Source: Carpediemonas membranifera BICM (taxonomy: Eukaryota > Protista > Fornicata). Taken from it: 64,000 bases of DNA. This document shows positions 2,726 through 59,249 of this stretch, piece after piece; position 1 is the first letter of the stretch, and the number at the start of each line of letters is the position of its first letter. The DNA lies in NCBI GenBank assembly GCA_019828565.1, contig JAHDYR010000038.1:1252552-1316551 (forward strand), in the 5' to 3' direction. Under the pieces are notes generated by a model. It saw nothing but the letters and a program-made list of their open reading frames with translations. It was not told the origin of the DNA and searched no databases. A program made the position numbers and the translations under genes.

Positions 2726-3085
2726 TTACTCACTCACAATGTCCTGCCCAGCAGCAGCCGCGCGTTCGCGAGCAGCTTGGGCTTGTGCCAGCCAATCCAC
2801 GATGGCTCTGCACTGCCACTTCCAATTGGCAACGAAAACCCGGTCCACGAGACGATCCTTGGCCGCGTTGTCCAGCAGCTTCATCTCGACCAGCCTCTCT
2901 GGCCAGGGCACACCGCCAGCCTTCCAGGGCGCGCAACGGCCGCTCGAACTGACAACAGCAGGCACCATATCAACGTTGAAGTGCTGATACTGCTTCACCT
3001 TATCAGCCCGCGCGTCGGAGACGTAGTCCGAGCAGACGATGTCAATGACGGGTTTCACACCGCCCTCGTCGGGCCTGACACATGA
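2726..3085 (-). pseudogene. C-terminal restriction-like endonuclease (RLE) domain of a CRE/R2-type non-LTR element
   Basis: VRPD...VIDIV...ADKVKQY...VPAVVSSSGR fits the RPD/D/KxxxY/PxxxxxxG RLE pattern. Same strand as the CRE-like RT at 28-29.4 kb. Confidence 0.6.
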
Positions 3086-3130
3086 GTATCTCCAGAGTAT
3101 CTCCCGGGAGACTCTAGCCATTCTTACAGT

Positions 3131-4795
3131 ATGATTCCAGCTATCTCCACCACCAACTGGTCAAGGTTTGTCGACTGGCTGGACGCCACCAAGCCTGATG
3201 CCCATCCCCAGCCCTCTCCTACCCCTCCCTCGTCATTTACCTCCCCCTGGTCCTGGGAGGCCGCCATCTCTCAAGCCGCGGGGCAGAGGCCCCCCATTGG
3301 TCCGAAGATAGCACTCAACGGCAGACCAGGGCCAATTTTTGCCATGTTTGGTCTTGACCTCACACCTCTGCTAGACCTATCGTCCTTCATATGCTCTATG
3401 GAGCTTCACCAAGCCTAGCATCATCCTCTCTGTCAAAACAGTACCTTGAATGGGGTGGTGGTTTAACCCCTCCTATCAGAAAACCTGCACCCTCTCCGAC
3501 TGCAGACGACAGCATTCTCCCTTGCCTCAAGACTCCTGGAAGGAAAAGAAAGGCCCCATCAACCCCTTTAGTGCCAGTATACAACATATCTGACCTCTCG
3601 CCAGAAGAGGAAGAGCCCCCTAGCCTCCATGTAGTGATTGAGGAGGCAATCAAGTTCCTACGATCTCCCAAAGCGCACTACTTCCCCCCTAACAAGCCCC
3701 AATCTTCTAACCCACTGACCGGGCCCGGCCCTTTCATGCATGTACCGGTACACATGGATAGAGATTGCGGTCTGCACTCCCTGGCAATATGCACAGGTCG
3801 CTCCGTCACCATCTCACGCTCTCAAGCCCTGCAGGATATTCTATCAGCACTCTCCTCCGGACTTCAGCCCTCTCCCAGGCTGAGAGCCACAATACACAAA
3901 CTGCGAATCTCACCAGTCGAAGGGGAAGCTGCCTATCTCTCATACGATAATCTGGCTATACTGGCGGCAGTATACGGCCTCAATTTAATCATCATATCAG
4001 ACGTCTCAGCCCATGAGAAATGCTTTCTTTTTGAGCGCCTCTTCGGTCAATGGGGTAAAAACTTCATTCGATGCCTTAAGGGCGTTCTTCGTCAGTGGTT
4101 ATGCCATCATCCACCACAAAAGAGTGCACTACGAGCCCCTTCTTGCCAACGATCTGGTTTCCGCAGCCACCAGTCTCAATGGCGCCACCTTCGGGCCAAC
4201 AGGCACCAACTATATCATCATTCTCGACTTCGAAGCGGCTGGATACGCGGTAGACCATCACCACCATGGTGCTGCCAGGTGTTTCCCAGTGGAGGCTGGA
4301 GCAACCCTTCTCCGCAAAGGTGTGGAGCCAGGCACAGACATCCCTATGTGGGACATCGAAGGCATTCATTGGGGACCCATAGACGTGGATTTCCCGGCAA
4401 ATCTCATGAGATCCGCCCTTGTACAGTCATGCACAATTCATGGATGCCCCCCCTTCTCGTTCAAGATACATCCGGAGGCCAATGGACACCCTTACCACTT
4501 CCCCTCACCTCGAGCCTGGCTTCAGCAGCTTGCTAACATTATGAGACAGCTGCCTACTTGTGTCCTTGTAGCTAAGGATCCGCGCATGGAGAATGCAGTC
4601 ATCCACTCCCATGCTGCGCCGGAGGACCTATCAACCCTGGGCAGGGTGCATGACCTGGCGGAGCTTGAGTCGATCGACCGCCGACTGTTCGCTGGCATGG
4701 CATCCTACATCGAGACATCCTCGTTCTCATCCAGAATGGACACTGCGCAGGCCCTTACCTGGATCAAAGCACCATGCCTTCCCAACGGGCAGTAA
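3131..4795 (+). pseudogene. Element A N-terminal region: OTU-like cysteine protease plus Maelstrom-like DEDD exonuclease (frameshifted)
   Basis: Protease motifs PVHMDRDCGLHSL...YLSYDNLAILAAVYGLNLIII...IIHHKRVHYEPL, then exonuclease motifs IILDFEAAG...FPVEAG...IHGCPP...VAKDPRME. Spread over ORFs 3131, 3391 and 4013. Confidence 0.6.
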
Positions 4796-7700
4796 GTCAT
4801 ACGAAGCGATGACAAGAAGCAACTTTGTGATCACCACTCGACATCAGGGAGACTGGGCATGGTTCAACCCTCTCGAGGCCCTTCGAGACATTGCAGCAGA
4901 AAGGCTAGCCTGTCACAGCCCTGCTACACTTGAGGAATCCTTTATCACCCCGGTCCAAGTCCAGGAGGGAGACATCTCCTTTGCAAACCTGCTCACCGCT
5001 CTAGAGGTCTTTTGGCAGGCCCCGCCTGCGTCCCAGCTCCCACAATCAGTGGCAGAGCTGATGACTATGAGAGCACCCCCGGCTTACAACACGGGCAATA
5101 ACATTGTCCGCTCGTACAGAGCCCCCCGCTTCTGGTTCTTAGTCCCCAGGGAGGGCAACCATCCACGACTCAGACGTGTCAGACCCTCGGTCTCTCGCTC
5201 GGCCAAGCCCGACTTCTTAGCCAATGTTGAGCGCGCGAGAGAGCAAAGAGTTGCTCTGTCCCATGACCTCACAAAAACGATGGACACGCTACATGCTTCA
5301 CGTGCCAATGACGTGCAGTGGCCATCAATTTCTGTCCGCGGAGCGGCCCCTGCGGGTCCTGCTCCCCCCAGGCGCATCACTCCCACTACTGTCCGACAAC
5401 GAGATGGACGCAGGCACAGGCCGGTAAATGGCCTTCTCTGTTCCTGGAATGTCACTTCACTCAACACGCGAAAGCTCGCCTTATGTCACTCCATTCAAGC
5501 GGACATCATAGTTATCCAGGAGCACTGGTGGCGCGCCATCACTCCAGAGAGTGCAACAGCTTCTGATTTCACCTTTGTTTTCCATAAAGTTCCAACTGGA
5601 GAAGTGAAACACCTAGGGGTAGGCTTCCTCTTGCACAACGACATAGCCAAGCACTGTGAGTATGTTCGAGGTCAGCCTCACTCGCCCCGCCTCCTGCAAA
5701 TTGATGTCGGATGTACACTCAACAGTCCCTCGCGCAAAGTCAAGCTGCGGCTCATGTCTATCTACACCCCGTGTGCAGGGAAAGAAGAAAGGGAGTCCTT
5801 CCATGAGCTTCTTCGCAATGCCATTAGCCTAGCACAACAGGCTGGCTTGCACACTGTTCTCATGGGAGACTTAAATACCAATGCAGATACCCCTCCACAA
5901 TCTGGACAGCTACTCTCAGCCTGGGCAACCTGATGCTACTCCATACGGACAATCCCAGCTTCAGTGACAGGTATCTAGACGCTTTCGCGGTGCCCTCATC
6001 CCTCATCGTCGGCTCCATGGATAGACCGTTTGCTACTGAGATAGAGCCATCAGGACACCGAACCATTACTCCTAAGCTCCCAATAGTCAACTTCTTCAAA
6101 CTTGCAGAGCCTCCACTATCTCTGCTCAGAGCCATTCCGAGCATTCAAGCGATGGCAAAACGCTGCGGGAGTCGCCTCGTAGACGACATCCGCTCCGCCA
6201 CTACGGTAGACGAGGCGGTCGGCCTGCTAGGAAAGACTCTCCGGCAGTGGAGCAAAAAGAAGGTCAGCACTCCCACTCAGGTCAATCAGAGCCAAAGCAT
6301 CACGCACCACTCAGTGACTACTGGCCTTGATGATGGTACCACCCCGGACGAGCTGTTCCGACTAATACGCATGGAACAGAACAGTGCAGAGTCCACCTGT
6401 TCTCATCCAAAGAAGATGGCAGGTCCCTTTGCCCCACAGTGTGCCATCTCCTCTGCAACTCTCTTGCAAGAGCTGTCACTATCGATTGCAAACGCCGAAT
6501 CCTCTCTCAAAGCGCACTCACTCAACTCAAGAGATTCCTCTGAACACATGAGGGTCTTCTCAGATGATTTCTTCAGGTATGTCAGGGGCAGGCTCAGGAA
6601 AGGAGCGGCTCGTCAGGGTAACTCCCAGGCAGACTTCATCTCACTGTTTAACAATGGAGTCCCAGCGGTCATCACAGTAGATGGACGCAATATCACTGAT
6701 CCTCAAGCAGTTGCTGCGGCCTTTGAACGCCAATACTCAAGCGTATCCTCATCACCAAATGCTCCTGACCCCAGGCACGCCGCCTCAGATCTACCACCTT
6801 TCGAGATCTCCCCCCCCCCGGCCCTACATGCAGCATTGCGAAGGTCAAAGAACTCTGCGGCGGCAGGAGCGGATGGCCTGTCCCCGGGCATTTTCAAAGC
6901 GCACCCATCACTCACTGAAGCGCTCCGCAACATCCTACAAAGATGTGTCGATGAGGTTGCCACCCCACACCAGTGGCACCAGGCAACAGTGGTCCCTATT
7001 AAGAAGCAAGGAACGGAGGACAAACCCCCAGCTTCGTATCGTCCGATATCACTTCTCTCGTCATGTCACAAGATCTTAGGGTCAATCATTGTCGCAGAAT
7101 TATCCCCAGTCAACCCACTTCCTCCAGAACAGTATGGGGCGCGCCCGGGCCGGTCAGCAGAGGATGCGCTGTGGGCAATTCATGGCGCCAGACTTGCCTT
7201 CTCAGCTACCTTTATAGCCACTCTGGAGATAGCGAAGGCTTTTGACAGAGTGCCCCGAAGGCGAGCACACGACAGGCTCAAGGGCCATCCTCGCCTCATT
7301 GAACTCCTCCGAGAGATGCACTCAAACACATCTCTTTCTCTCAAGGGCTCATCATCAGCAGCTACAACGAACTTAGGAGTCAGGCAAGGCTGCACCACCG
7401 CCCCTTTCCTCTTTGTTCAATACCTTTCAGATGTGCCACGACTGATCAGGCATCTCAGCACCCTCGACCGTGGCACACTTGACTCACTTGATCCGGACAT
7501 GGACAAGCTGGAACAACTGGCGTCGAGTCTACCAGCGGACCATGTGCCGGTGTCAGTCCTTTACATGGATGACCTCACGCTCGTAGCCCCCTCCCTGGAC
7601 CTTCTCATCCGAGCCCTCACAGCTGCATGGCTCATCATGGAAGCTCTTGAGCTCCAGCCCAACCACAAGACATGCTTTATTGCGGACTCCTCAGTCCAGT

Positions 7701-8056
7701 CAATCATAGTGAGAGGACACAGAGTCGAACAAAAGGACACTATCAAGCTCCTTGGCATCTGGTTTGACACATCCACATCATTCAACACGCACAACGATAG
7801 GACTTATGAGAAGATCCAAAAAGAAATTGCATGGCTCAAGTCCATCGGCATATGCCACTCCCGCTTTGTGCATCACATTGTGGAGGTTTATGTGGTGCCG
7901 AAACTGACATACGCCTGGTCAGTGTGGGCTGGCCGCAAAGCCAGACGTGCATGAGTCAGCTGGCTTCTCTTGCCCTGCGCGTCAACAACACGGCCTCGCA
8001 AGCCAAATACTTTGAGCTTGGATGGCTTCATCCCTCGGTCATGCTGCTGGCTGACA
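4796..8056 (+). pseudogene. Element A APE endonuclease and reverse transcriptase (degenerate)
   Basis: APE motifs SWNV, IQEHW, GVGFLL, MGDLN, SGH (normally SDH). RT motifs AAGADG, YRPISLLS, QYGARPG, LEIAKAFD (normally LDI), GVRQG, YMDD, KLLG. Frameshifts near 5930 and 7950. Confidence 0.85.
8042..8056 (+). repeat. 15-bp TSD of element C (TGCTGCTGGCTGACA), left copy; partner at 18435-18449
   Basis: Exact direct repeat flanking C. Confidence 0.9.
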
Positions 8057-10719
8057 GAAAGAAAGAAAGAAAATTTATGGTGCCTGGTATCGGGCCCCGG
8101 TTACTTAGGCTGATCTCCCTTATTACTGGAGCCGAGTTCCCCGGGGCGCTGCCTCCTCCCTGCGATTGAACTTGTCAGCTGCGTCCAACGAGCGATTCGG
8201 TGCTACTGCTTCCGCTCACTCCCGATTTCACTTCCCCCCATAGGCCTTCGCCATCTCCGTGCGCTGAGCGCTTTCCTGTCTCCCTGTAAACCCGGCAGCT
8301 TCCAGGGAGCCTGGGGTCTGTCCTCGGTGCTTCCACAGGCAGGTTTGTCCTGCAAGACCTTCTCTATAGCACTCCCTGATTCCCTGCAGTCCCTACGGGG
8401 TCGTTCAAGCATGGCACCCTCTCATCTTTCCAGATTCCCTGTTCAGTGCCCACACGACCCTGTTAAGTGGCCTACCCGTGGGCGGGGAAAGCAACTAAGT
8501 CCCTCTCATCTACCCCTGTTAGGCGGCGTGGGCTAGGGCTGACACAGACTCTAGATCTGCAAGGCCTAGTACCCCTTATGATAGTTCTCTTGTGCTACAC
8601 TTCCCAGCGTCCCTATATCGTTCACAAGGGCGGCGGGGACGTCATGTCCCCCCGTATCCCATGCTCAGTCCCTGCAGTTTCCTTAGGTTCACCGCGAGTG
8701 GTGCAACCATCCAATTGATGGATTTCCTCTGTCCCTGGCCCTGCCCTCTCCCTGGGAAACATGGGGGGTCTCCCCTTGATCCCAGAGTCTATGCTTCCCT
8801 GCCCCCTTTCTGGATGTGGTGTTCCTTATCTATCCATCTATTCTATAGCTATCATAGACCTTTGCCAGGCTCTGGGCCTTCTCCCCTTTCCGCTGATGAT
8901 GGAGACGGGCTGACATTCGCTGCCACCGACACTATCCTTTTCCACTCTGCCCTTGACTGCCACTTCCCTGTCTTCCTACTTATGGCCGGTTTCCCCGCCA
9001 TGCACTTTCCCATACGTTTGGGTCCTAGGACTTCCATGAGCCCCACCGCTGTCTTGCTCTTGCACCTCCTGGTCCAGTTCATTCTTACCATCTCCCTACC
9101 AAAGTCTATCTTCCCTGCATTCGTTGCTCCCTCTCTTGTTCCTCTGAGGAGTGCGTTCACTGAGTCCCTGGCTTTCCACATAATCGATCCCTCCTTCCAG
9201 ACCCTGTCTCTGATTGGTATATCCTGGCCCCTGCTTGTCACGATCCTCTTGACTGCTAGCATCTCCAGGTGGGCTTGCAGGTCCATCCATCCGTTCAAGA
9301 TGCGCATGACCGAGCCCCCACCTGGGCCTTTTCCGGCCATGATGCCCTGCCAATCCGTCCATATCTTGTTCCCCCCTGCTGCGTAGCCCCACACCTCCAC
9401 TCCAAACATTATCCTCGGCCATATGTAAACTTCGAGGAGGAGCCTGCTGGCTAGCGCCGGCATGTTGCCTCTGGTCCATCCCACTCTTCTCACTAGCTTC
9501 TTGTACCTTTCGCTCTGCTCCCGCTTCTTTCTGATACAGGCTGCCAGTGGGTCTTTTCCGCTGGCTATCCAGAGACCTAGGTACTTAGCTTCCTCTTTTG
9601 CCATTAGGGTAACTCCCCCCACTCTCGCCACTGCTGCCCTGTCTACACTGATCATCTCACTCTTTTGTGCATTTGCCCTCATGAGGTGCTCCTTGATAAC
9701 TTCTATGACTAGGTTCGCCACTATCTTGCTCTTTTCCGGTGTCTCCCCTGTGACCGCTGTATCGTCCACGAACATGGTTAGGGTGGCCGGCAGCGTGTCC
9801 CGGACTCTTGGTAACTCCGTTGGTGGTTCCCTGATATCGTACTCTTGTCCCTGATGCTTCTTCCTGACCAGGTGAGGCCAGTTTGCCATGAACAAAACGA
9901 ACAGGGTCGGCGCTAGGACAAATCCTTGCTTCACTCCCCTGTTTGTTCTCTCCCATGACCCTGCCCCCTTCCTGCAGCTTATCCATGAGGATGTCCCTCG
10001 GGACGGTGTCATAGGCTTTCTCTATGTCTAGGAAGATCGACGTGGTCTCCCCCCCTTCCTGGTGTCTCTGCACGATGTATTGTATCTGTTGTATTACGTC
10101 CTTATCCGATTGGAACCCTGCTTGCTCTCTTGGGATGAGGTGCCATGTGGCTGCTTCTAATCTTCTCTTCAGGAGCCTACCATACACCCTATACAGTAGT
10201 GGTGTTAGCGAGATGGGTCTGTACGACTCCGGCTTCACTCTGGGCTTCCCATTCTTGTGGATGGCCGAGACTGTAGCATACTTCCATGTTGTCGGGATCT
10301 TGCCCTCCCTGTATACCCTGTTCATGAGCCTAGTTATCTGAGCGATCCCCTGGTCATCTGTGTCCCTGAGCATGTCCCCTGTAGTGTGGTCCGGTCCCGG
10401 TGCAGTGTCCCTCTTTATCCTTCTGATCGCTTCTCGTATTTCTCTCTCCTTAAATTCGTCCTCCCTCTTTCCATTGCCTCTATCCTTCCACTCCGGTTTC
10501 CTGCCCCTGCTCACTCCTGCATACTGTTGTAGGAGGATCTTACCTATTTCTTCCTTGTTGGTGGTAATCTCCCCGTCCTTCAGTATGCTCTCTGGCATGC
10601 CCTTGAACTGGTTTTCACACCACCATCTTCTTACCGCTGCTTCCACCATGGACCTGGATGCTTTGTATCCTTCCTTCGCGCTCCGGCTGAGGTCCTGGAT
10701 CCACTCTTCCCTGCGTTTT

Positions 10720-10825: not shown

Positions 10826-11298
10826 CAGTTCACCAATGATTTCAGCAAAGTGGAAACACTTCGATCATGGATGGACAAGGACCAACAGGCCTGGCCTATA
10901 TGGATAGGGCAGTGCCCCATGGAGCTCAGAAGGAGCGGCCTTGGCCTCCTGTCTGAACATTCAAGGGTTGCTATCAGGGCATACCGCTGGGCGCGAGTGG
11001 GAGCTCCACGCCCATACCAAGGAATCAAAGTGTCTTCATGGAACGTATGTTTACAAGGAAAAGGAAAACAACCGTCGAGGGCCAGTGCTAGCACCGGCGG
11101 CTACATGGTTTTGTCAAGACCACAAGGAAGGAAGGGCAGCACAAAAGGGAAACAGGGGCCGTCGATAGAGGCTAAAAGGAGACTACGAACAAAGCAACAA
11201 CAACTACACAGAAAGGCCCCGCTACTCAGAAAAGGGCGACGCATTTTTAGGACCGCGCCTTTTTGAAAGAATGGCCTATATAGTACGGAGCATGGACA

Positions 11299-14200
11299 AT
11301 GGGAGAAACTGGAAGGCCTGGACGGAGACCTCACCCGGATATGTACATGTGGCCCGACTTTCGGACCCAAAAATTCCGACCCAGTTTATGGACTAGGAAA
11401 AGGGGAGAAATTTTGCACTCAACAATGCAGGTAGAAATACCGACAAGGATCAGGGATTCCACGCAGAAGCAGTGGGAGGACATCAGGGAACTACTGGACA
11501 GCTTCCTCGCTGAAAGGAACGATTCAAGGACTCTACTTCTTCGTAGAACAGGCAAGTTTACAGGAAAGTCGCTCAATGCGAACTCCAAAGGACGCAAGGA
11601 AGTAATCATGAACGCCAGACGCATCCTCTTCGCAACCGGCGTCACTGACAACAAGGACATCATCCTCAGGAACCCATGCGGCATCCACGGCCTCCGCGAC
11701 CTTTTCTACATGCTCACAGAGGCGCTCAACCCCAGAGACGAGGAAGCAAAGGACATGGCACAGGCACTGGAGCCCAAGACGCTGAAAGCGGGCTTCACTG
11801 GCATGGCAAGATGGCCATCTGAGAAGGACATCGAGACGGCGATCCTCAAGCCGAAGGAAGATGGGCCCATCGAATGGGATGTAGACAGGGACAGCGTCAA
11901 GAAGGCCGAAGGGTCGTTCATACTGGTATCAGGGGCTCATGGAGACGAGGCCGTAGAAGGCGTGCCTTACGACAAGGTATGGGATCCGGCAAACCAAGGC
12001 CCGGTCACCAGAGTGGCCTACGAGCAAGAGGACGGCAAGTACAGGGTCATCCTAGAGCTAAGCGACACGTCAGCATGGTCCATCAGCCGCTTCATGGAGG
12101 AGGCTAGGGACATCCTCAGGCTTCAGGCACCGGAGGCCCCGGCCATATGGCAGGCAGCATGGAACAAGTCAGGGATCTACCTGAAGGGCAGAACCAATAT
12201 CCTGGGCGAAGGGGAGGAGACCCCCCTTAGCAACGAGCCGCCGTTCCGGAAGGTGAGGCTGGAAGTGCTCAAGGCCACCTCGGTCCGCAGCAATAGGGAC
12301 GAACATGCCGATCTGGACAGGTCGTCCGCTAGCACGGTCATCGACGGAGACGAGGAGCAACATGTCAAGGACAAGGAGGAACGACGCCAGCAGGCCACCA
12401 TGCCCGGCAGAAGAAGCCTCGACGACAGCCTCCTGGAAGTGAACAAGGACATGGTCGGGGCCAACCAAGGCAAGATCGACCAGGACGAGGAGGTCGACTC
12501 AAACAAGGACAGCAGTCAGCCGCCGAGGATGCCTAGAAAGGACAAGGAGAAACGACTGGTGATCGGAGCCATCGACTTCGAGTGCGCAGACCCTGGCGTC
12601 AAGAAGGCAGGGATCCCTGCCATCCCGGTTGAGGGCGGGATCGTACTCTTTGACCTCAGCACTGGGGACATTCTTGGACACGGGCATGGCCTGTACTACC
12701 AGGACATACCGGCAGCAAGCATGGACCAAGCGAGGTACACGGCATGGGCAGTGACGGGGCTGCCGCCGGCCACCTTCGTGGAGGTCGGGACGGGGCGGCC
12801 GCCGATCGAGTATGAGAAGCACATACATACTTTCAGGGACTGGGCCAACCGCCTGGCGGCTCAGCTGGCAAGGATCGAAAGGTCGGAGGGTTGGAAGATA
12901 ATCATGTATGCAAAGGGGGTGGAGATGGAAAGCTTCCTCCTCACGAACCCCACAAATGGACTGGAGCAAGGAACCAGGGAATTCTTCCAAGCTAGGCTGG
13001 TGGACGAGAAGAAGCTACCAGAGATCCTGGAGAACAACGGCAAGGGAGGAGGCTGGCCAAAACCTCAGGGACAACCTCGACAAGGCCAACTACCTGGAAG
13101 CAGTAACAACATGGTCAAATGGATGGCAGAACAGGAGCGAGCCCAAGGGAGTCTGTCCGTACCACAGACACACCGCGGGTTGCTACCACTGTGGGTTGGC
13201 GGATACAGTAGTCTTCACAGCCAGGATCAGGGCCCTATGCAAGGAGAGGATGAGCACCCCAGACGTCTACCACTACATGGGTAAGGCACTCGACAAGACC
13301 ATGGAAGCAGTCGGGAAGGCGGAGCCGGGCATGGATATCATGGGAGGCCCGGAATTCGCGACAAGGAGGGACACCTTTGAGATCTTCGGCACGTACCCGA
13401 TCGGGGACGCAAGGGACGTCAGCAGGGAAGTCGGCGACAGGATCCTCGTAGTCCCGGACAACGGACACCGCTTCGGCATCGGCTTCGGGTTCGGGGAGGT
13501 TCTGTTGGGCATGAAGGGCATCTTACTGGCCCCCCTCACAATCATGGACAACGAAGGTGTACTGGAGAGAAGCCCGCTATGGACCATCATGGAAGAGCCA
13601 CGGCTAACCAGCTCCGCATGGTACGCGTCAGGAAGGGCCTAGGGGCAGCAAGGGAGGAGGACATCATAACCATGGCCATGCTATACGAGTGGTGGCCCTC
13701 GAAGGAGGCTACGGCTCATCAAGGAGTCTGGGGCTGCGACGACCTAGCAGAGAGCCTCAGGGACTATGAGAAGGTCATAGTCAACGTCAAGGCCCCCAGG
13801 AACAGGGGTAGGATCACCCTAGGGGCGAGCTTCATCCCGAGAGACTGGGGCATGGTCAGGGTCAGCGAGGCTGGGACCATCCTAAGCCGCATGCGCAAGG
13901 AAGGGGCCAGACTAGTCTCGGCAGCTATCCCGGACGAGCCCAGAGCCAACACAGTCAATGTCCCAGGCATCACGTATGTCCCCACCATCGACGGAAAGTC
14001 CGAACAGCCATACCAAAGTAGGTTCTTCGACAACGGCCTGGAGGAAAAGGCGAGGCGGATTAGCACCAGGATGGTGGGCAGGCACTTCGGCCAGGACGCG
14101 GATCAAGGACATCACGACCAGCATGGAGACAGGGAAGAGGACAGAAGGGTAGGACACGGAGCCGGCGGTAGAGCTGGTGTCAGAGCTGACGACAGAACCG

Positions 14201-14802
14201 GCGACAGAGCTGGTAACATGAACAGGACCTCGGATCGTAACCACGGAGGAGACGACAGGGAGAGACAGGACAACACGGGAACACAGATGAGAGGCTCGTT
14301 CAGCGGGAACACCTGGGCCGGTAGAGGCTCAGAGGGAGGCATGGACAACAGCAAGGATCACTCTTCCTCCACGACGCTCAAGCGCAAGGAGGGCAGCACG
14401 AGTAGGATCATGGACTCGGACAGCGGAAAGAGAAGCAGGCACGAAGAGGACATGGACTGGGAGTCTGGAAGCAGACAGGCAACCGGCATGGACTCGGAGA
14501 AGCTGCGGCTCCGAAAGCAGTTGGCAGAGGCGCAACAAGAGATCTCAGCGCTCAAGGCTGCCCGACTCATGCAAGAGCAAGGCCACGGAAGGTTGGTGCT
14601 CTCCGGCGTCGCGACTAAGCCCAGCAAGGAGAAGCCCACGATCCCCCGGCACAAGCACAAGAAGGCTAAGAAGGCCAAGCAGATCTCACCCATGGACCTG
14701 ATGACCCAGTTCATCACGGTAATGCAGAGTCTACAAGGACAGCAAGTGAGTCAGGCCGAGGACAGCTGCAGCGGCAGTGGGGAGTCCACGGAGGAGGAGT
14801 AA
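11299..14802 (+). CDS. Family B ORF1 (~1167 aa) with a Maelstrom-like DEDDh exonuclease domain and C-terminal coiled coil
   Basis: Three overlapping ORFs are joined by compensating +1/-1 homopolymer slips (~13045, ~13593) that are absent from copy B2. Motifs IDFEC, IPVEGG, TGLPP, AKGVEME, CPYH-x6-HCGLAD. Confidence 0.8.
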
Positions 14803-15134
14803 GGACATGGTAAAGCAGTATTCTTTCAAGGAACAAGCAACATTTTCTTTATAATTCACAAGCCCTGGCTCCCACCCAGGGCCCGGCATTAGCTGAAATG
14901 CACTGCCGGTAGGCTGTAGCGGCAGCCAAAGGGGGGGTCACGTCATATCGTCCCCCTCCTAAGTACCCTGCCCGAAGAATGGAAGGTCACCAGGTGGTAA
15001 CAAGGTTGGCCTGACAAGGGTCACCGAGACCGGCATCTAGGCCCCTTGTTAGGACAAGGATAGCAGGAGAGGAGCGGGAAGCTGGGGCTCCCAAATTCTG
15101 GGAATTCGCAGGATAAGGAAACAGGACAAAGGCA

Positions 15135-15634
15135 ATGGTAACCTACAAGATACTTAGTCTGAACACAGAGGGACACATAGGAAGAGGAAAGGACTTCACG
15201 GCGTCTATGGCAACGGCGAGCTGGCCCAAGGCGCTGACCTGAAGAGAGAAATTAGCAGACTATGCCCCCTATGCTCGGATGAGTCGGAGGTGAGCCTGTT
15301 CTACAGGATCATTAGGGAAAAGCCAGGACCAGCAAGGAAGCAGGAAATGATCAGGGAGTGGGCAGAGGGCCAGAGGCTAGGATCGGCAGCGCACATAATC
15401 TGTGAATGCCCGGCAGTAGACAGGGGAGAAGCTTGGACAAAGCTGTGGACAGCAGCGAAGCACAAAACTAAGGACTTGGAAGTAAGGCAGGGCCCCCAGG
15501 GCGAATGGTACCAGGAAAGACCCATCCTAGAATTACAGCAACTAATAATATGGGGCTCGGAGGACATTTGGGAAGGCCTCACGGCAGGACTACGGGAACT
15601 GGCAAAGGTTTACAACAGCTTCAAGGTGGAATAG
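15135..15634 (+). pseudogene. B1 ORF2 remnant (first 28 codons fused out of frame to the Zn-finger tail)
   Basis: MVTYKILSLNTEG...MATA followed by a stop at ~15240. The downstream CPLC...HIICEC matches the end of B2 ORF2. Confidence 0.85.
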
Positions 15635-18538
15635 AAGCATGTCATGAACCCCTGACTCCAGGACCGGGAAGGGATGGACAAGGAATCAGCCATGGACCAC
15701 CCTCGCTGGTGCTAAGCTCCTGGGATCAGTGAGGAAAGGCCCCACGTATCCCGGTAGCCAGGAACCAAAGCAAGGGAAGGAACGACTGCAAGGAAAGAAC
15801 AGGAAGGACAGACCAGAAATAAGAAAGAAAGGACATGCGACAAGGACAGAGCAAGGATAAGGTCAAGGAAATCCATATCCATATGGTTGCACCACTCGTT
15901 GGGACCCCAAGGAAACTGCAGGGACTGGCCACGGGGGTCGGAGGGGCACAGGTGCCCCTGCCGCCCTTGTTAACGACATGGGAAACCAAGGACATGTAGT
16001 GCAAGCGAAATGTTGTAAGGGGTAACAGGACAACCAGGCCTAGTGCCTGGGGGTACACCACCATGCCGCTGACCCACGCCACCTAACCGGGGTAGACAGC
16101 ATGGACTTAGTCACTTTCCCCGCCTTCGGGTAGGCTTCTTAACAGAGTCGAGGGGGCATGGAATTGGGGAACCGGACAGACGAGAGGGTGCCGTGGCTGA
16201 ACGGCTCTACAAGGACTGCAGGGAAGCAAGGAGTGTCATAGTCAAGGTTCTGCAGGACGATCCTGCCTGTCAATGCCCCGAGGACAGACCCCCAGGCTCC
16301 CCGGATAGTTGCCGGACTTTCAGGGAGACAGGAAAGCATATTTGCACGGAGATGGCCGCAGGGCCTCTGGGGCGATTGGAATCGGCTTTCCGCGGAGACA
16401 GTAGCACCGAAAGCCCAAGGCAAACGCTGCTGACCAGTTTGCCACGGGAAATAGGCAGTACCCCGGGGCACTCAGCTCCAAGACAACGGGAAACAAGCTC
16501 AGTCCGGGGTCAGAATCCAAGCACCATAAATTTCTTTCTTTCTTTCTTTCCCGGGAACGCCTTAGCGTGTTGACTTCCCTTCGTGAGCGAGCCTGATACT
16601 ACGTTGGGGGCGTTAGCACCATCACCGTCAGGGTCCAGCTGGTAAGGCTGGGTAGTCCCTTGCATGTTGACCTATCAACTGGCTGGCCCGATACCCCCAA
16701 AGTCGGGATAACCCAGGTCTTACTCTTGGGGGTCCTTCGGGCCCCCGTTCTGCCTGGCACCCGCAAGGCCTTGCCCTGCACACCCGCCACCGGGGCCTTC
16801 TGCTCGGTTTCCCCCTACAGGGCTCCTCTCAGGGATATTTTCTCCATACCATTCGACCCAGTTTGCAATTTTTCAGGCACCCGCCGAAGCGGTTTCGGGC
16901 TTGGCGTTTGCCGTACCACGCAATTGGGCCAGTTATGAAACCCACCGATCATCGCTGGGTAGCTATATGATTCACGGCTGCGTTCGGGCTCTTCCACACT
17001 TTCCGTTCCGGCATGGATCCCCTCCTCAAGGATTTGTTCCCTATAGGGCTTCTTCCTAGCTTCCGGCTGGTTCCAAGTTTTGGGTGCCGGGCCGTTCGGC
17101 GCAGCTCTGATTTGGTCCAGGTGCCGCCCAGGTGGTATTGTTGCCTTATGGTTACCCTCCTGTTTGGCTGCTGCGCCCCGATACCTCGCACGTACGTGTA
17201 TACATGTGCATACGTGCCCCGCCCTATGGCTCTGGGTTATTTCTTATACGTGTGAAGAGTGTGCCGGTTCTGCCGGCTGAATGTTGTCTACGTTCCCAGT
17301 ATGGGTGAGCGTTTGTGTGTTAGCGAGATTAGTGTTCGGGGTTGAGTCCCCCTTCCGCGGCTGGGTGCTACCGGGATACGTGGGGCTTGCGTCCCCCGCT
17401 GATCCCAGGAGCGCTCCGCTTCGGTTGAGGCGGGGGTTGGGTCCCAGTTTGACCCTGGTCCCAGAGGTCATAGGATTCTGGGATGGTGTACTTACCCGTC
17501 TTTCCGGAGGTTCAGAAGGGCACGTCTGCCGTTCTGCAGTCCCTCTCTGACGGTATGGTCCTCGCTGCGGAGGAGCCAGAGCATTTCCAGGATTGCCCTT
17601 GAGTTGTACCACTCCGCCTCCTGCCCTTGCCTTAGGGCGTGGTACTGTGTGCGTAGATGCGCCTCCGCCAGGATGTCATTCCATCCTTCTGGGCGTTCTA
17701 CCGCCTTGCATTGGCAGATGATGTGGCTTTGTGTTCCCAGGGGCTGGTTGTATGCCCATTCTGAGAGGATTTTGGTGGTTTCCGCCGCGGTTCTGGTGAC
17801 AGTGTACAGGCGAGTAATGGTGTCACCTTCTGAGTCCAGGGTACATAGGGGGCAACACCGCTTGATCCTGCTCAGGAGGGCCTGGGGCTGGCCGATCGCG
17901 CTCCCAAGTACCCCAGAAGGCCTGTAGCTCACGCTTCATGATCTCACTTCTGGTCTTGTTTCCCTCTTCTGTCCATGGTGTGTGCCGGAGCTCCGACCAC
18001 ACCTTTTCTTTGATGACCTCTTCCCTGTATCCACTGCCTGGGTGACCTGACGGCTCGCCCATATCCTTCCTGATATCCTCCTCCCACTCATCCAGGCTCT
18101 TAAAACGGTGCAGTCTTCTGACTGATGTGCGTTCAGCCTTCTTCCTCATGTTCCACACTCTGACGCCCGGTATGTCTAGGACTTCCTCTCTCTTTGTCCG
18201 TTGGATCCGTTGTTCCCTCCATTCCAGTCTTATCATGTTGTGGGCTGACCCCCAGACTCCGAGTCGACTAGCATCCAGTACTTCTATCCTTGCTCCTCTG
18301 ATCCCTGATGATACCAGCGCGAAGTCCGGAGTGGTAGTTCCCTTGGTGAGGGTACCTTCCATGGGGATCACTGCTCCCAGCTTATAGTCCCTGATCAGGT
18401 CCTTCCATCTTGCCATTGTGGCTATCCTTTTGGGTGCTGCTGGCTGACAAGGCCAGACAGCGCCTCCGTTGGTTGCGTCTCCACCCAGAGGTCCCAATGC
18501 TCCAACCACTCGCCGACGCGGCAGATCTGCTCGGCCCC

Positions 18539-18553: not shown

Positions 18554-19459
18554 GAAGAAGAAATTTATGGTGCTTGGATTCTGACCCCGGACTGAGCTTG
18601 TTTCCCGTTGTCTTGGAACTGAGTGCCCCGGGGTACTGCCTATTTCCCGTGGCAAACTGGTCAGCAGCGTTTGCCTTGGGCTTTCGGTGCTACTGTCTCC
18701 GCGGAAAGCCGATTCCAATCGCCCCAGAGGCCCTGCGGCCATCTCCGTGCAAATATGCTTTCCTGTCTCCCTGAAAGTCCGGCAACTATCCGGGGAGCCT
18801 GGGGGTCTGTCCTCGGGGCATTGACAGGCAGGATCGTCCTGCAGAACCTTGACTATGACACTCCTTGCTTCCCTGCAGTCCTTGTAGAGCCGTTCAGCCA
18901 CGGCACCCTCTCGTCTGTCCGGTTCCCCAATTCCATGCCCCCTCGACTCTGTTAAGAAGCCTACCCGAAGGCGGGGAAAGTGACTAAGTCCATGCTGTCT
19001 ACCCCGGTTAGGTGGCGTGGGTCAGGGCATGGGTGGTGTACCCCCAGGCACTAGGCCTGGTTGTCCTGTTACCCCTTACAACATTTCGCTTGCACTACAT
19101 GTCCTTGGTTTCCCATGTCGTTAACAAGGGCGGCAGGGGCACCTGTGCCCCTCCGACCCCCGTGGCCAGTCCCTGCAGTTTCCTTGGGGTCCCAACGAGT
19201 GGTGCAACCATATGGATATGGATTTCCTTGACCTTATCCTTGCTCTGTCCTTGTCGCATGTCCTTTCTTTCTTATTTCTGGTCTGTCCTTCCTGTTCTTT
19301 CCTTGCAGTCGTTCCTTCCCTTGCTTTGGTTCCTGGCTACCGGGATACGTGGGGCCTTTCCTCACTGATCCCAGGAGCTTAGCACCAGCGAGGGTGGTCC
19401 ATGGCTGATTCCTTGTCCATCCCTTCCCGGTCCTGGAGTCAGGGGTTCATGACATGCTT

Positions 19460-22400: not shown

Positions 22401-22902
22401 CCCTGAATCCATCCTTCTCCTGCTTGCTGTGGCCGGATGGGGGGCCATACACGTTGATGACTAGTATGTCCCTGCCGGTTCTCATTATGCTGGCTTGCAC
22501 TCTTCCCGATAGGCTGTCCGATATGCCGATGTCCCACTTTGCAGTTGCGTGTGGGCTCACTATCGTGCCGATGCCTTCCCTTGTTCCCTTCCATCTTGGC
22601 GCAGGTTCGTCATTGCCTGCTATGCCTAGTTGTCGGTTGATGCGGTGCTGACTTTTGACATCCGCCTTTCGTTTTTCGTTGGCTAAGACCAGGTCCTCTT
22701 CCGTCTCCCTCCCTGCTAGTGCGTAGTCAAGGTCCATGAAGCAATGAACCCTCGTATTCGCCGTTCTCCATGTCTCTTGTATGAGTACTGCCTCTATGTC
22801 CTTCAACCTTAGCTGAATCGCCGTTGCCATAGACGCCGTGAAGTCCTTTCCTCTTCCTATGTGTCCCTCTGTGTTCAGACTAAGTATCTTGTAGGTTACC
22901 AT
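19460..22902 (-). CDS. B2 ORF2: APE endonuclease - reverse transcriptase - CCHC Zn finger
   Basis: SLNTEG, IQETW, GIG, NVYGP, MGDWN, PDF, SAH; APGPD, YRPISL, QAGF, GVKQG, FVDD, RYLG; CPLC...HIICEC. Broken by frameshifts, several of which appear to sit in homopolymer runs. Confidence 0.9.
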
Positions 22903-23232
22903 TGCCTTTGTCCTGTTTCCTTATCCTGCGAATTCCCAGAATTTGGGAGCCCCAGCTTCCCGCTCCTCTCCTGCTATCCTTGTCCTGACAAGGGGCCTAG
23001 ATGCCGGTCTCGGTGACCCTTGTCAGGCCAACCTTGTTACCACCTGGTGACCTTCCATTCTTCGGGCAGGGTACTTAGGAGGGGACGATATGACGTGACC
23101 CCCCTTTGGCTGCCGCTACAGCCTACCGGCAGTGCATTTCAGCTAATGCCGGGCCCTGGGTGGGAGCCAGGGCTTGTGAATTATAAAGAAAATGTTGCTT
23201 GTTCCTTGAAAGAATACTGCTTTACCATGTCC

Positions 23233-26200
23233 TTACTCCTCCTCCGTGGACTCCCCACTGCCGCTGCAGCTGTCCTCGGCCTGACTCGCTTGCTGTCCTT
23301 GTAGACTCTGCATTACCATGATGAACTGGGTCATCAGGTCCATGGGTGAGATCTGCTTGGCCTTCTTATCCTTCTTGTGCTTGTGCCGGGGGATCGTGGG
23401 CTTCTCCTTGCTGGGCTTAGTCGCGGCGCCGGAGAGCACCAACCTTCCGTGGCCTTGCTCTTGCATGAGTCGGGCAGCCTTGAGCGCTGAGATCTCTTGT
23501 TGCGCCTCTGCCAACTGCTTTCGGAGCCGCAGCTTCTCCGAGTCCATGCCGGTTGCCTGTCTGCTTCCAGACTCCCAGTCCATGTCCTCTTCGTGCCTGC
23601 TTCTCTTTCCGCTGTCCGAGTCCATGATCCTACTCGTGCTGCCCTCCTTGCGCTTGAGCGTCGTGGAGGAAGAGTGATCCTTGCTGTTGTCCATGCCTCC
23701 CTCTGAGCCTCTACCGGCCCAGGTGTTCCCGCTGAACGAGCCTCTCATCTGTGTTCCCGTGTTGTCCTGTCTCTCCCTGTCGTCTCCTCCGTGGTTACGA
23801 TCCGAGGTCCTGTTCATGTTACCAGCTCTGTCGCCGGTTCTGTCGTCAGCTCTGACACCAGCTCTACCGCCGGCTCCGTGTCCTACCCTTCTGTCCTCTT
23901 CCCTGTCTCCATGCTGGTCGTGATGTCCTTGATCCGCGTCCTGGCCGAAGTGCCTGCCCACCATCCTGGTGCTAATCCGCCTCGCCTTTTTCCTCCAGGC
24001 CGTTGTCGAAGAACCTACTTTGGTATGGCTGTTCGGACTTTCCGTCGATGGTGGGGACATACGTGATGCCTGGGACATTGACTGTGTTGGCTCTGGGCTC
24101 GTCCGGGATAGCTGCCGAGACTAGTCTGGCCCCTTCCTTGCGCATACGGCTTAGGATGGTCCCAGCCTCGCTGACCCTGACCATGCCCCAGTCTCTCGGG
24201 ATGAAGCTCGCCCCTAGGGTGATCCTACCCCTGTTCCTGGGGGCCTTGACGTTGACTATGACCTTCTCATAGTCCCTGAGGCTCTCTGCTAGGTCGTCGC
24301 AGCCCCAGACTCCTTGATGAGCCGTAGCCTCCTTCGAGGGCCACCACTCGTATAGCATGGCCATGGTTATGATGTCCTCCTCCCTTGCTGCCCCTAGGCC
24401 CTTCCTGACGCGTACCATGCGGAGCTGGTTAGCCGTGGCTCTTTCCATGATGGTCCATAGCGGGCTTCTCTCCAGTACACCTTCGTTGTCCATGATTGTG
24501 AGGGGGGGCCAGTAAGATGCCCTTCATGCCCAACAGAACCTCCCCGAACCCGAAGCCGATGCCGAAGCGGTGTCCGTTGTCCGGGACTACGAGGATCCTG
24601 TCGCCGACTTCCCTGCTGACGTCCCTTGCGTCCCCGATCGGGTACGTGCCGAAGATCTCAAAGGTGTCCCTCCTTGTCGCGAATTCCGGGCCTCCCATGA
24701 TATCCATGCCCGGCTCCGCCTTCCCGACTGCTTCCATGGTCTTGTCGAGTGCCTTACCCATGTAGTGGTAGACGTCTGGGGTGCTCATCCTCTCCTTGCA
24801 TAGGGCCCTGATCCTGGCTGTGAAGACTACTGTATCCGCCAACCCACAGTGGTAGCAACCCGCGGTGTGTCTGTGGTACGGACAGACTCCCTTGGGCTCG
24901 CTCCTGTTCTGCCATCCATTTGACCATGTTGTTACTGCTTCCAGGTAGTTGGCCTTGTCGAGGTTGTCCCTGAGGTTTTGGCCAGCCTCCTCCTTGCCGT
25001 TGTTCTCCAGGATCTCTGGTAGCTTCTTCTCGTCCACCAGCCTAGCTTGGAAGAATTCCCTGGTTCCTTGCTCCAGTCCATTTGTGGGGTTCGTGAGGAG
25101 GAAGCTTTCCATCTCCACCCCCTTTGCATACATGATTATCTTCCAACCCTCCGACCTTTCGATCCTTGCCAGCTGAGCCGCCAGGCGGTTGGCCCAGTCC
25201 CTGAAAGTATGTATGTGCTTCTCATACTCGATCGGCGGCCGCCCCGTCCCGACCTCCACGAAGGTGGCCGGCGGCAGCCCCGTCACTGCCCATGCCGTGT
25301 ACCTCGCTTGGTCCATGCTTGCTGCCGGTATGTCCTGGTAGTACAGGCCATGCCCATGTCCAAGAATGTCCCCAGTGCTGAGGTCAAAGAGTACGATCCC
25401 GCCCTCAACCGGGATGGCAGGGATCCCTGCCTTCTTGACGCCAGGGTCTGCGCACTCGAAGTCGATGGCTCCGATCACCAGTCGTTTCTCCTTGTCCTTT
25501 CTAGGCATCCTCGGCGGCTGACTGCTGTCCTTGTTTGAGTCGACCTCCTCGTCCTGGTCGATCTTGCCTTGGTTGGCCCCCGACCATGTCCTTGTTCACT
25601 TCCAGGAGGCTGTCGTCGAGGCTTCTCCTGCCGGGCATGGTGGCCTGCTGGCGTCGTTCCTCCTTGTCCTTGACATGTTGCTCCTCGTCTCCGTCGATGA
25701 CCGTGCTAGCGGACGACCTGTCCAGATCGGCATGTTCGTCCCAATTGCTGCGGACCGAGGTGGCCTTGAGCACTTCCAGCCTCACCTTCCGGAACGGCGG
25801 CTCGTTGCTAAGGGGGGTCTCCTCCCCTTCGCCCAGGATATTGGTTCTGCCCTTCAGGTAGATCCCTGACTTGTTCCATGCTGCCTGCCATATGGCCGGG
25901 GCCTCCGGTGCCTGAAGCCTGAGGATGTCCCTAGCCTCCTCCATGAAGCGGCTGATGGACCATGCTGACGTGTCGCTTAGCTCTAGGATGACCCTGTACT
26001 TGCCGTCCTCTTGCTCGTAGGCCACTCTGGTGACCGGGCCTTGGTTTGCCGGATCCCATACCTTGTCGTAAGGCACGCCTTCTACGGCCTCGTCTCCATG
26101 AGCCCCTGATACCAGTATGAACGACCCTTCGGCCTTCTTGACGCTGTCCCTGTCTACATCCCATTCGATGGGCCCATCTTCCTTCGGCTTGAGGATCGCC

Positions 26201-26739
26201 GTCTCGATGTCCTTCTCAGATGGCCATCTTGCCATGCCAGTGAAGCCCGCTTTCAGCGTCTTGGGCTCCAGTGCCTGTGCCATGTCCTTTGCTTCCTCGT
26301 CTCTGGGGTTGAGCGCCTCTGTGAGCATGTAGAAAAGGTCGCGGAGGCCGTGGATGCCGCATGGGTTCCTGAGGATGATGTCCTTGTTGTCAGTGACGCC
26401 GGTTGCGAAGAGGATGCGTCTGGCGTTCATGATTACTTCCTTGCGTCCTTTGGAGTTCGCATTGAGCGACTTTCCTGTAAACTTGCCTGTTCTACGAAGA
26501 AGTAGGGTCCTTGAATCGTTCCTTTCAGCGAGGAAGCTGTCCAGTAGTTCCCTGATGTCCTCCCACTGCTTCTGCGTGGAATCCCTGATCCTTGTCGGTA
26601 TTTCTACCTGCATTGTTGAGTGCAAAATTTCTCCCCTTTTCCTAGTCCATAAACTGGGTCGGAATTTTTGGGTCCGAAAGTCGGGCCACATGTACATATC
26701 CGGGTGAGGTCTCCGTCCAGGCCTTCCAGTTTCTCCCAT
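23233..26739 (-). CDS. B2 ORF1 with a Maelstrom-like DEDDh exonuclease
   Basis: Near-identical to B1 ORF1. Three +1 homopolymer slips (~25580, ~24505, ~23990) are not shared with B1. Confidence 0.8.
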
Positions 26740-27226
26740 TGTCCATGCTCCGTACTATATAGGCCATTCTTTCAAAAAGGCGCGGTCCTAAAAATGCGTC
26801 GCCCTTTTCTGAGTAGCGGGGCCTTTCTGTGTAGTTGTTGTTGCTTTGTTCGTAGTCTCCTTTTAGCCTCTATCGACGGCCCCTGTTTCCCTTTTGTGCT
26901 GCCCTTCCTTCCTTGTGGTCTTGACAAAACCATGTAGCCGCCGGTGCTAGCACTGGCCCTCGACGGTTGTTTTCCTTTTCCTTGTAAACATACGTTCCAT
27001 GAAGACACTTTGATTCCTTGGTATGGGCGTGGAGCTCCCACTCGCGCCCAGCGGTATGCCCTGATAGCAACCCTTGAATGTTCAGACAGGAGGCCAAGGC
27101 CGCTCCTTCTGAGCTCCATGGGGCACTGCCCTATCCATATAGGCCAGGCCTGTTGGTCCTTGTCCATCCATGATCGAAGTGTTTCCACTTTGCTGAAATC
27201 ATTGGTGGACTTATGCCAGCACCCAT

Positions 27227-58813: not shown

Positions 58814-59249
58814 GTTGGCGCCCTTGCACGACCTGCTCTTGAACTTCTGCGCGTAGTAGCGATGCGGGTGCGCCGTGCCGTCTGCGCAGTAGTGGTGGCA
58901 GTGGCCGGCGACCTTGGTCACGCCGCTAGTGTACGGGAAGCACGCGAGCGACGGGCTTCCAAAGAACTCGAGATACTCGTATGCGCGCTTCGGGTAGCCC
59001 CCGTGGCACCCGAGCTGGCCCGCGAAGTCGCACGCGACGAGGTCCTGGGGCGAGAGCAGGCTCTTCTTGCCCGTCTTGATGCAGAAGCGGTCGCTCAGCG
59101 CGGTCGAGCTGCCGAACGCCCAGCAGCTGCCGCACTGGCCCTGGTTGAGGACGTAGTCGAGGCAGTGCGGCTCGAGCTCGCGCCAGTCAAGGGAGTCGCC
59201 GAGCTGCTCGGCGGGCAGGGCCTCCACGGCGCCCAGCAGCTCGATGCTC
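58814..59249 (-). pseudogene. Near-identical ~435-bp inverted copy of the cathepsin B core (39269-39704)
   Basis: Sequence identity to the full gene; lacks the signal peptide, most of the propeptide, and the catalytic His/Asn half. Confidence 0.88.

Follow-up and report, generated by a model that had tools for sequence, protein, structure and literature searches.

The 64-kb window, the whole stretch of DNA analysed here, raises the question of what a protease-like domain is doing directly in front of a nuclease in a retrotransposon, and whether the two were ever part of one protein with the endonuclease and reverse transcriptase (RT) encoded behind them. The preliminary description of this DNA, made from its letters and open reading frames, had an OTU-like deubiquitinase fused to an exonuclease in what is here called element A, possibly in a single polyprotein with the APE endonuclease and RT. 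It offered two explanations, a two-enzyme counter-defence cassette acting on ubiquitin and RNA or a polyprotein that processes itself. We take up the frames first, then each of the two domains, and then what they might do for the element.

Setting and reading frames of element A

The first 27 kb of the window are made up of nested retroelements, and ordinary eukaryotic genes follow. Element A occupies the plus strand between about 3131 and about 8055. It belongs to the APE-type non-LTR retrotransposons, since it contains an APE endonuclease and, downstream of it, an RT, both above the Pfam cut-off. The APE is at 5427–5894 (SWNV at 5442, QE at 5517, GDLN at 5865; PF03372, E 3.7e-08, 33.8 bits against a cut-off of 24.5). 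The RT-bearing frame is at 5864–7954 (YMDD at 7562; PF00078, E 1.5e-21) and is entered via a frameshift at about 5865–5895. A (GAAA)4 tail at 8057–8072, on the minus strand, belongs to another LINE; from here the reading frame of element A is no longer recognisable, and therefore its 3' end is interrupted. Tails of this kind, (GAAA)4-5, from LINEs of the family of element B (see below) mark nested insertions at 8057, 10736 and 16531, and three stretches at 8053–8710, 15883–16550 and 18683–19211 are about 74% alike. Directly upstream of element A is another retroelement, on the minus strand (2–2522), with an RT at 861–1868 (PF00078, E 5.2e-17) behind a 217-aa ORF; its layout may be DIRS-like. 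A 144-codon stop-free frame of protein-like composition (2726–3160, minus strand) adjoins the 5' end of element A. In the remainder of the window, a 431-base piece of a protease gene, labelled cathepsin-like by eye, is found twice in inverted orientation 19 kb apart, at 39269–39699 and 58819–59249, with 99.8% identity.

The earlier statement that the frames overlap from 3131 to the RT with no spacer is confirmed by a chain of stop-free frames at 3086–3418, 3358–4536, 3989–4795, 4572–5933 and 5828–7954. The coding region possibly starts at an ATG at 3131, which opens a 95-aa frame on the plus strand (3131–3418, frame 2) overlapping the next one, and a Pro/Ser-rich stretch at 3358–3735 is in frame with the Cys box of the OTU-like domain. 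Both come from the list of open reading frames. The first has no Pfam match and no counterpart among the 17 relatives discussed below, and the second has no homologue among them. The OTU-like domain follows in two parts, its N-terminal two thirds in frame 1 (3736–4035) and its C-terminal strands in frame 2 (4037–4141). Next comes a truncated nuclease at 4199–4777, with its DFE motif in frame 2. A post-nuclease domain and linker (4773–5426) is in frame with the APE, which is in the third frame, and the two share 374 stop-free codons (4773–5894). The RT is in frame 2 again. An OTU-like domain does stand directly ahead of the nuclease within 3736–4795, as had been described, but as assembled the window copy has the Cys box and helix in frame 1 and the His and DFE in frame 2, and so it does not encode the fusion in one ORF.

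These breaks are bridged by a single relative. P0001 (KAG9391364) is a 908-residue gene model of the free-living protist Carpediemonas membranifera, the source of almost all the named relatives of element A. It was the only match among 2483 candidates in a word-based search of 5.8 billion proteins; the same type of search with P0001 residues 1–470 gave nothing shorter than 498 aa. By tblastn, P0001 is collinear with the window, with residues 9–87 aligning to 3805–4035 (39%), 171–365 to 4193–4777 (67%), 462–810 to 4773–5894 (55%) and 801–900 to 5864–6163 (42%). It thereby spans all three of the breaks between 3805 and 6163, linking the OTU helices, the nuclease and the APE to the RT-bearing frame. 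The break inside the OTU-like domain is a one-base frameshift at 4028–4036, in or beside a T run, where the alignment to P0001 switches from frame 1 to frame 2. After it, 27 residues of P0001 align gap-free in frame 2 only (7 of 27 identities, score 31); none of 20,000 shuffles reached this score, and the other frames scored −40 and −43. Because no gap opens in P0001 here, the break is most plausibly a lesion or a sequencing error.

Single-base breaks are frequent here, since all seven indels between the two copies of element B fall in base runs. This, the collinearity of P0001 with no gap at the OTU break, and the frame that the post-nuclease block and the APE share in the window itself make it likely that the parent element had one ORF covering the OTU helices and everything downstream, as far as 100 residues or more into the frame of the RT. 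As a gene model, P0001 is itself a prediction; it has a gap of 21 residues, possibly a predicted intron, and it ends before the RT domain. The proposed polyprotein with APE and RT is thus likely for the parent up to that point, but the window copy is split over several frames. Placement of the Cys and His motifs in different ORFs had been named in advance as evidence against the fusion; that is literally their arrangement in the window copy, yet P0001 bridges the break gap-free.

The OTU-like domain

The Cys box DRDCGLHSL is at 3757–3783 (Cys codon 3766–3768), the OTU-type helix YDNLAILAAVYGLNLIII at 3943–3996, VHYEPL at 4124–4141 (candidate catalytic His codon 4127–4129) and LDFEA, at the start of the nuclease, at 4223–4237. 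The Cys box, helix, HY and DFE are therefore all at the sites originally claimed for them, although the distance from the His to the Asp of DFE is 33 codons rather than about 25. The D-x-x-C of an OTU protease, whose Cys begins the core helix, is present at 3757–3768 in the window copy only, P0001 starting after the box. Across both strands of the window, the ordered triple of Cys box, helix and H-Y-x-x-L occurs once, at element A. In 60 simulated 64-kb strands it occurred about once with a bare D-x-x-C and in none of the 60 with the fuller Cys box, numbers that overstate the significance because the patterns were drawn up with the sequence already known.

Profile methods did not name the domain. 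Neither piece, nor a read-through with X at the break, matched an OTU or Josephin family in Pfam. The HMM search suggested earlier as a check thus returned no Pfam family for the pieces or the read-through, and because the PF02338 cut-off is not reached, we call the domain OTU-like and do not assign it to PF02338 (MEROPS C64/C85/C87). There was no OTU among the phmmer matches in the PDB. A two-row OTU profile, applied to 22 sequences, recognised nothing beyond its own members and the window frame that overlaps them; the best E elsewhere was 1.3. A word-based search with the read-through found nothing among 540 candidates, but that search missed P0001 too and hence is insensitive.

Methods that compare sequence features or folds gave a more uniform answer. 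In a feature search of the ESM Atlas with the frame-1 piece, the two best clusters (0.92 and 0.91) are unnamed, and the third (0.90) has PF02338 on 80% of its members. The recognition value is 2952 and all ten of the best named matches fall within one family or clan, with the caveat that shuffled proteins attain 0.9 in 4–10 of 100 cases. For the fold searches, the read-through was modelled with AlphaFold2 from two sequences, giving a poor model (pLDDT 44.9). With this model, Foldseek ranks 1–11 are all OTUs (nairovirus OTU and OTUD3, E 0.11–0.41), and OTUs make up 20 of 42 among the matches listed. In VIA-align against 48,161 chains, the top three rows are OTUs (Z 5.1, 5.0 and 4.4; rmsd 4.2–4.5; 106–123 residues aligned). 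Its leaders from the same pLDDT 44.9 model are a Wolbachia OTU and OTUD3, the best at Z 5.1 and rmsd 4.2 over 117 residues, and OTUs fill 16 of 50 rows among the matches listed. The BFVD search had mixed top rows, with OTU-labelled and nairovirus L rows at ranks 3–4 (E about 0.2). The OTU matches of the read-through model stop at model residues 131–133. All these fold searches share one model, and they stay below the thresholds for an OTU fold, with no Foldseek E under 0.1 and no Z of 8 or more. Lack of any papain-fold match had been listed as a result that would count against the domain; OTUs do head the fold lists, but all of them below threshold.

The blank profile searches and the low fold scores are what one would expect if the stretch were unrelated to OTU, its motifs being chance occurrences in some other N-terminal module. 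We consider that highly improbable, because the feature search with the frame-1 piece and the fold searches with the read-through independently rank OTU first among named families, and 16 of the 17 VIA-align rows with at least 94 aligned residues, among the matches listed, are OTUs. Counting the fold searches as one line, two partly independent lines agree, and we are therefore confident of the OTU-fold identity of the domain ahead of the nuclease. The choice of OTU-like over Josephin-like for a domain directly before the exonuclease is likewise supported by the ESM Atlas cluster at 0.90, Foldseek and VIA-align. No Josephin structure is among the Foldseek and VIA-align matches listed, which are led by OTUs, a result that does not exclude Josephin.

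OTU activity is less sure than fold, since the predicted catalytic Cys and His are seen in the element A copy alone and neither is confirmed by the second copy. The P0001 model starts immediately downstream of the Cys box, and at the expected His site it has a 17-residue tandem repeat (its residues 119–155), so its OTU would be disrupted too. In the window copy, His 4127 is in a different frame from the Cys box, and although P0001 spans that break, it has the repeat where the His should be. The domain might then be a pseudo-enzyme or be decaying in the whole lineage, either binding ubiquitin or doing nothing. OTUs usually have Gly at the site of the Cys box where element A has Arg, and Asp or Asn two residues after the His, where element A has Glu. 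These departures, and a sole second copy that supports neither catalytic residue, would fit a pseudo-enzyme. Nevertheless, the window copy has the Asp, the Cys and the His in the order to be expected of an OTU, and P0001 is disrupted at the Cys and His sites rather than cleanly substituted, so we think loss of the enzyme throughout the lineage unlikely.

The nuclease and its sister elements

Maelstrom is a host factor that aids transposon silencing. The nuclease region of element A, 67–68% identical to P0001, has D-x-E in strand 1 (DFE, 4226–4234) and a zinc-binding Glu in strand 2 (PVE, 4286–4294), both aligned across the family and P0015, the relative that leads to Maelstrom. The C-x2-H-x8-C-x3-D tail, which holds the zinc site and the last catalytic His and Asp, is lost in the window copy except for its first Cys (4775–4777). 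The tblastn alignment of P0001 places a deletion junction there, at 4773–4777, with a frame change and about 96 codons missing. No counterpart of the missing stretch, P0001 residues 366–461, is found in any window frame at element A, and element B retains it. A loss of 96 codons is too big for a base-run error. The window copy is dead, encoding no active nuclease nor, as assembled, a whole OTU.

A profile of element A, element B and P0001 found 14 proteins among 1.84 billion representatives. The weakest match, P0015 from the amoeba Rhizamoeba saxonica (E 2.1e-4), itself matches Pfam Maelstrom at E 5.7e-19, and hhalign gives 97.7% for the nuclease family against P0015, a protein picked by the same profile. 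Direct matches to Pfam Maelstrom (PF13017) are absent for the window pieces, P0001 and 12 of 13 relatives, and the link is via P0015 only. The tail is kept in P0001, in both copies of element B and in 13 of the 16 proteins P0003–P0018, the exceptions being P0004, P0006 and P0013. Its spacing is that of C290, H293, C302 and R306 in Bombyx Maelstrom, and a protist relative of the Bombyx protein with all these residues is reported to be an active ribonuclease (both from the available part of PMC4408791). Judged by these residues and by the link through P0015, the nuclease is of the Maelstrom type (DEDD plus zinc site) and, where intact, a putative ribonuclease. The preliminary description called it an exonuclease with a DFE motif; the motif is real, but the Maelstrom-type identity and the truncation had been missed. 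Scans of metagenomes and viral contigs with the nuclease alignment gave no locus, and profile searches of the PDB with the nuclease alignments gave no Maelstrom or arenavirus structure. A single-sequence model of element B (pLDDT 36.2) has ERI3, a DEDD exonuclease, as its best Foldseek row (E 0.099) among many RNase H-fold proteins; this was not used as evidence.

Element B is present in two copies that are 99.6% identical, at 10827–15219 on the plus strand and 22818–27211 on the minus strand. Its ORF1 (11284–14802 in the plus-strand copy) encodes the complete Maelstrom-type nuclease, with all catalytic and zinc residues, behind an N-terminal domain, and has no OTU. It ends at a stop at 14802, followed by a spacer and then by ORF2, with APE and RT, from about 15135. 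The start of the 4773–5426 block of element A aligns with the end of the block behind the nuclease in this ORF1. By eye, P0004 is nearly letter-for-letter the element B of the window. For a nuclease assay, element B would be a better substrate than element A. A candidate second protease in element B (N-P-C-G-I-H-G-L) was rejected; its Cys is not conserved in its relative P0003, and the domain of element A does not match it. Seven other proteins (P0007–P0011, P0014 and P0018), of 720–1250 aa, combine this nuclease with a C-terminal coiled coil, and those looked up are on contigs of 3–11 kb (6–11 kb for P0007–P0010). They resemble LINE ORF1 proteins, with a presumed link to LINEs in the case of P0007–P0010.

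The relatives also bear on whether the two domains travel together. Among the 17, an APE is found in P0001 only and an RT in none. The Cys box is missing from all six relatives with at least 300 residues before the nuclease (element B, P0003 and P0007–P0010), which gives no support to the earlier idea of a two-enzyme cassette as a fixed unit. Since the sister elements have an intact version of this nuclease in an ORF1-like protein that includes neither OTU nor APE, the OTU is, as far as these sequences tell, a lineage-specific add-on. The simplest history would have the nuclease as the shared ORF1 enzyme of these elements; in lineage A, ORF1 would then have become fused with ORF2, and an OTU would have been added at the front.

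A coupled cassette, in which the OTU would block ubiquitin-dependent restriction while the nuclease would destroy double-stranded or small RNA, draws on the short distance of 33 codons between the domains and on nairovirus OTUs being nearest among the Foldseek matches listed. In addition, the arenavirus exonuclease and Maelstrom are described as sister groups with the same zinc site (PMC7968707, in part). However, fold rank is no proof of viral origin, and the occurrence of the nuclease without an OTU in all other relatives indicates that the two are not coupled. On RNA silencing in the host, the available part of PMC8516963 gave no evidence, as it makes no mention of Argonaute or RNAi. We regard such coupling as quite unlikely.

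Possible roles and known systems

On balance, we favour the following reading. Element A is an APE-type non-LTR retrotransposon in decay; its parent likely made one protein in the order OTU, Maelstrom-type nuclease, APE and RT, and the OTU would strip ubiquitin off the element's own protein and so protect it from degradation. The OTU would act in cis as a deubiquitinase on the polyprotein or its RNP. The nuclease may bind and trim RNA, be it the transcript of the element itself or small-RNA triggers. OTU and nuclease would work independently, not as one cassette. Both roles are conjectures, that of the OTU by analogy with Dualen, for whose Josephin the same protective role has been put forward (PMC8557442, citing Kojima and Fujiwara 2005; available in part).

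Alternatively, the main task of the OTU might be self-processing, with this protease splitting the fused polyprotein into one part like ORF1 and one like ORF2. Consistent with this, an OTU accompanies the nuclease only in the lineage with a nuclease–APE fusion (the one relative of 17 with an APE is the sole one with an OTU-like part), and viral proteases of the OTU cluster with both roles are reported in the available part of PMC10318531. But the correlation rests on one lineage, and the motifs that such a protease would be expected to use are not in evidence. There is no LRGG. The 1638 residues of element A contain six sites of the form x-x-G-G or [LRKV]-x-G-[GA] and P0001 contains four, and a comparison of these two sequences by eye showed none in common. 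Nor does element A have a 2A-like motif. With no ubiquitin-tail-like or 2A-like motif common to element A and P0001, the self-processing polyprotein suggested earlier seems doubtful.

A bolder version of the deubiquitinase reading, which we put forward tentatively and think rather unlikely, would have a protist LINE lineage with a single polyprotein in which both the OTU and the Maelstrom-type exoribonuclease are active. In that case, a transposon would have made the forebear of a silencing factor of the host into an ORF1 enzyme of its own and paired it with a virus-style deubiquitinase, against control through ubiquitin and RNA at the same time.

Comparison with published systems, in each case from the available parts of the papers, places the two domains differently. 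N-terminal deubiquitinases on LINE ORF2 proteins have precedent (PMC13405545, PMC8557442), and for an OTU in that position, one report was found in the literature searched. That report concerns a LINE ORF2p of Symbiodinium necroappetens (PMC13405545), which like element A has an N-terminal OTU before APE and RT in one protein; it differs in having a 2A-like peptide and a second RT, and no exonuclease is mentioned in the part available. Dualen/RandI (Josephin-like; PMC8557442, PMC13405545) and NeSL/Utopia (Ulp1; PMC4640811) also have an N-terminal ubiquitin-family cysteine protease, proposed to hinder protein degradation. They differ from element A in protease family and in having a restriction-like endonuclease, and the accessible text of these papers describes no Maelstrom-type nuclease. 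Outside LINEs, Ginger1 transposases, Helentrons and adintovirus PolB (PMC2836005, PMC6431247, PMC8502044) resemble element A in having an OTU fused to a replication or integration enzyme, but they are DNA elements with no RT, and no Maelstrom-type nuclease is described in the portions available. The main text of PMC8502044, to the extent available, has no mention of MAEL.

On the nuclease side, the Entamoeba histolytica MAEL protein EHI_192630 (PMC4408791, PMC2628886) and the arenavirus NP exonuclease (PMC7968707) share the D-x-E, the second-strand Glu and the C-x2-H-x8-C-x3-D with the intact relatives of element A. These are host or viral proteins, whereas here the domain rides on LINEs and the window copy is without the tail. 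Rotifer LTR retrotransposons and Terminons (PMC5408684, PMC6431247) have, like element A, a 3'-5' exonuclease of their own, with a Cys-His-Cys motif in two families. Those exonucleases are of the DEDDy class and are in separate ORFs of LTR or Penelope-like elements, with no protease partner in the parts of the papers available.

In the full-text literature searched, as far as its texts were available, there is no LINE with a Maelstrom-type nuclease and no OTU–nuclease pair on a retrotransposon; Repbase Reports, a frequent first outlet for such elements, and most subscription papers are outside this scope. A host protein, PAN2, is an example of a UCH_1 domain with an RNase T domain, and its protease part is inactive. 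Cellular proteins of this type (PMC10318531, in part) are like element A in having a papain-fold deubiquitinase beside a DEDD nuclease in one chain, and unlike it in having the USP fold and being host genes. The available parts of PMC11520807, PMC5718144 and PMC9940879 contain nothing bearing on the pairing of OTU and nuclease in element A. The OTU–Maelstrom pairing on a retrotransposon seems to be undescribed.

By itself, the OTU fusion goes only modestly beyond cases already known, and more of the weight is carried by the LINE-borne Maelstrom-type nuclease. The active protist form of Maelstrom and its arenavirus cousin have had no agreed common setting; the LINE-associated family provides a third setting and an enzyme that can be tested, and it has a bearing on the direction of the domain's transfer among hosts, transposons and viruses. 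The recurrence of Josephin, Ulp1 and OTU proteases on retrotransposons suggests that ubiquitin-dependent degradation is a general limit on these elements, and a compact OTU beside a nuclease makes that idea testable.
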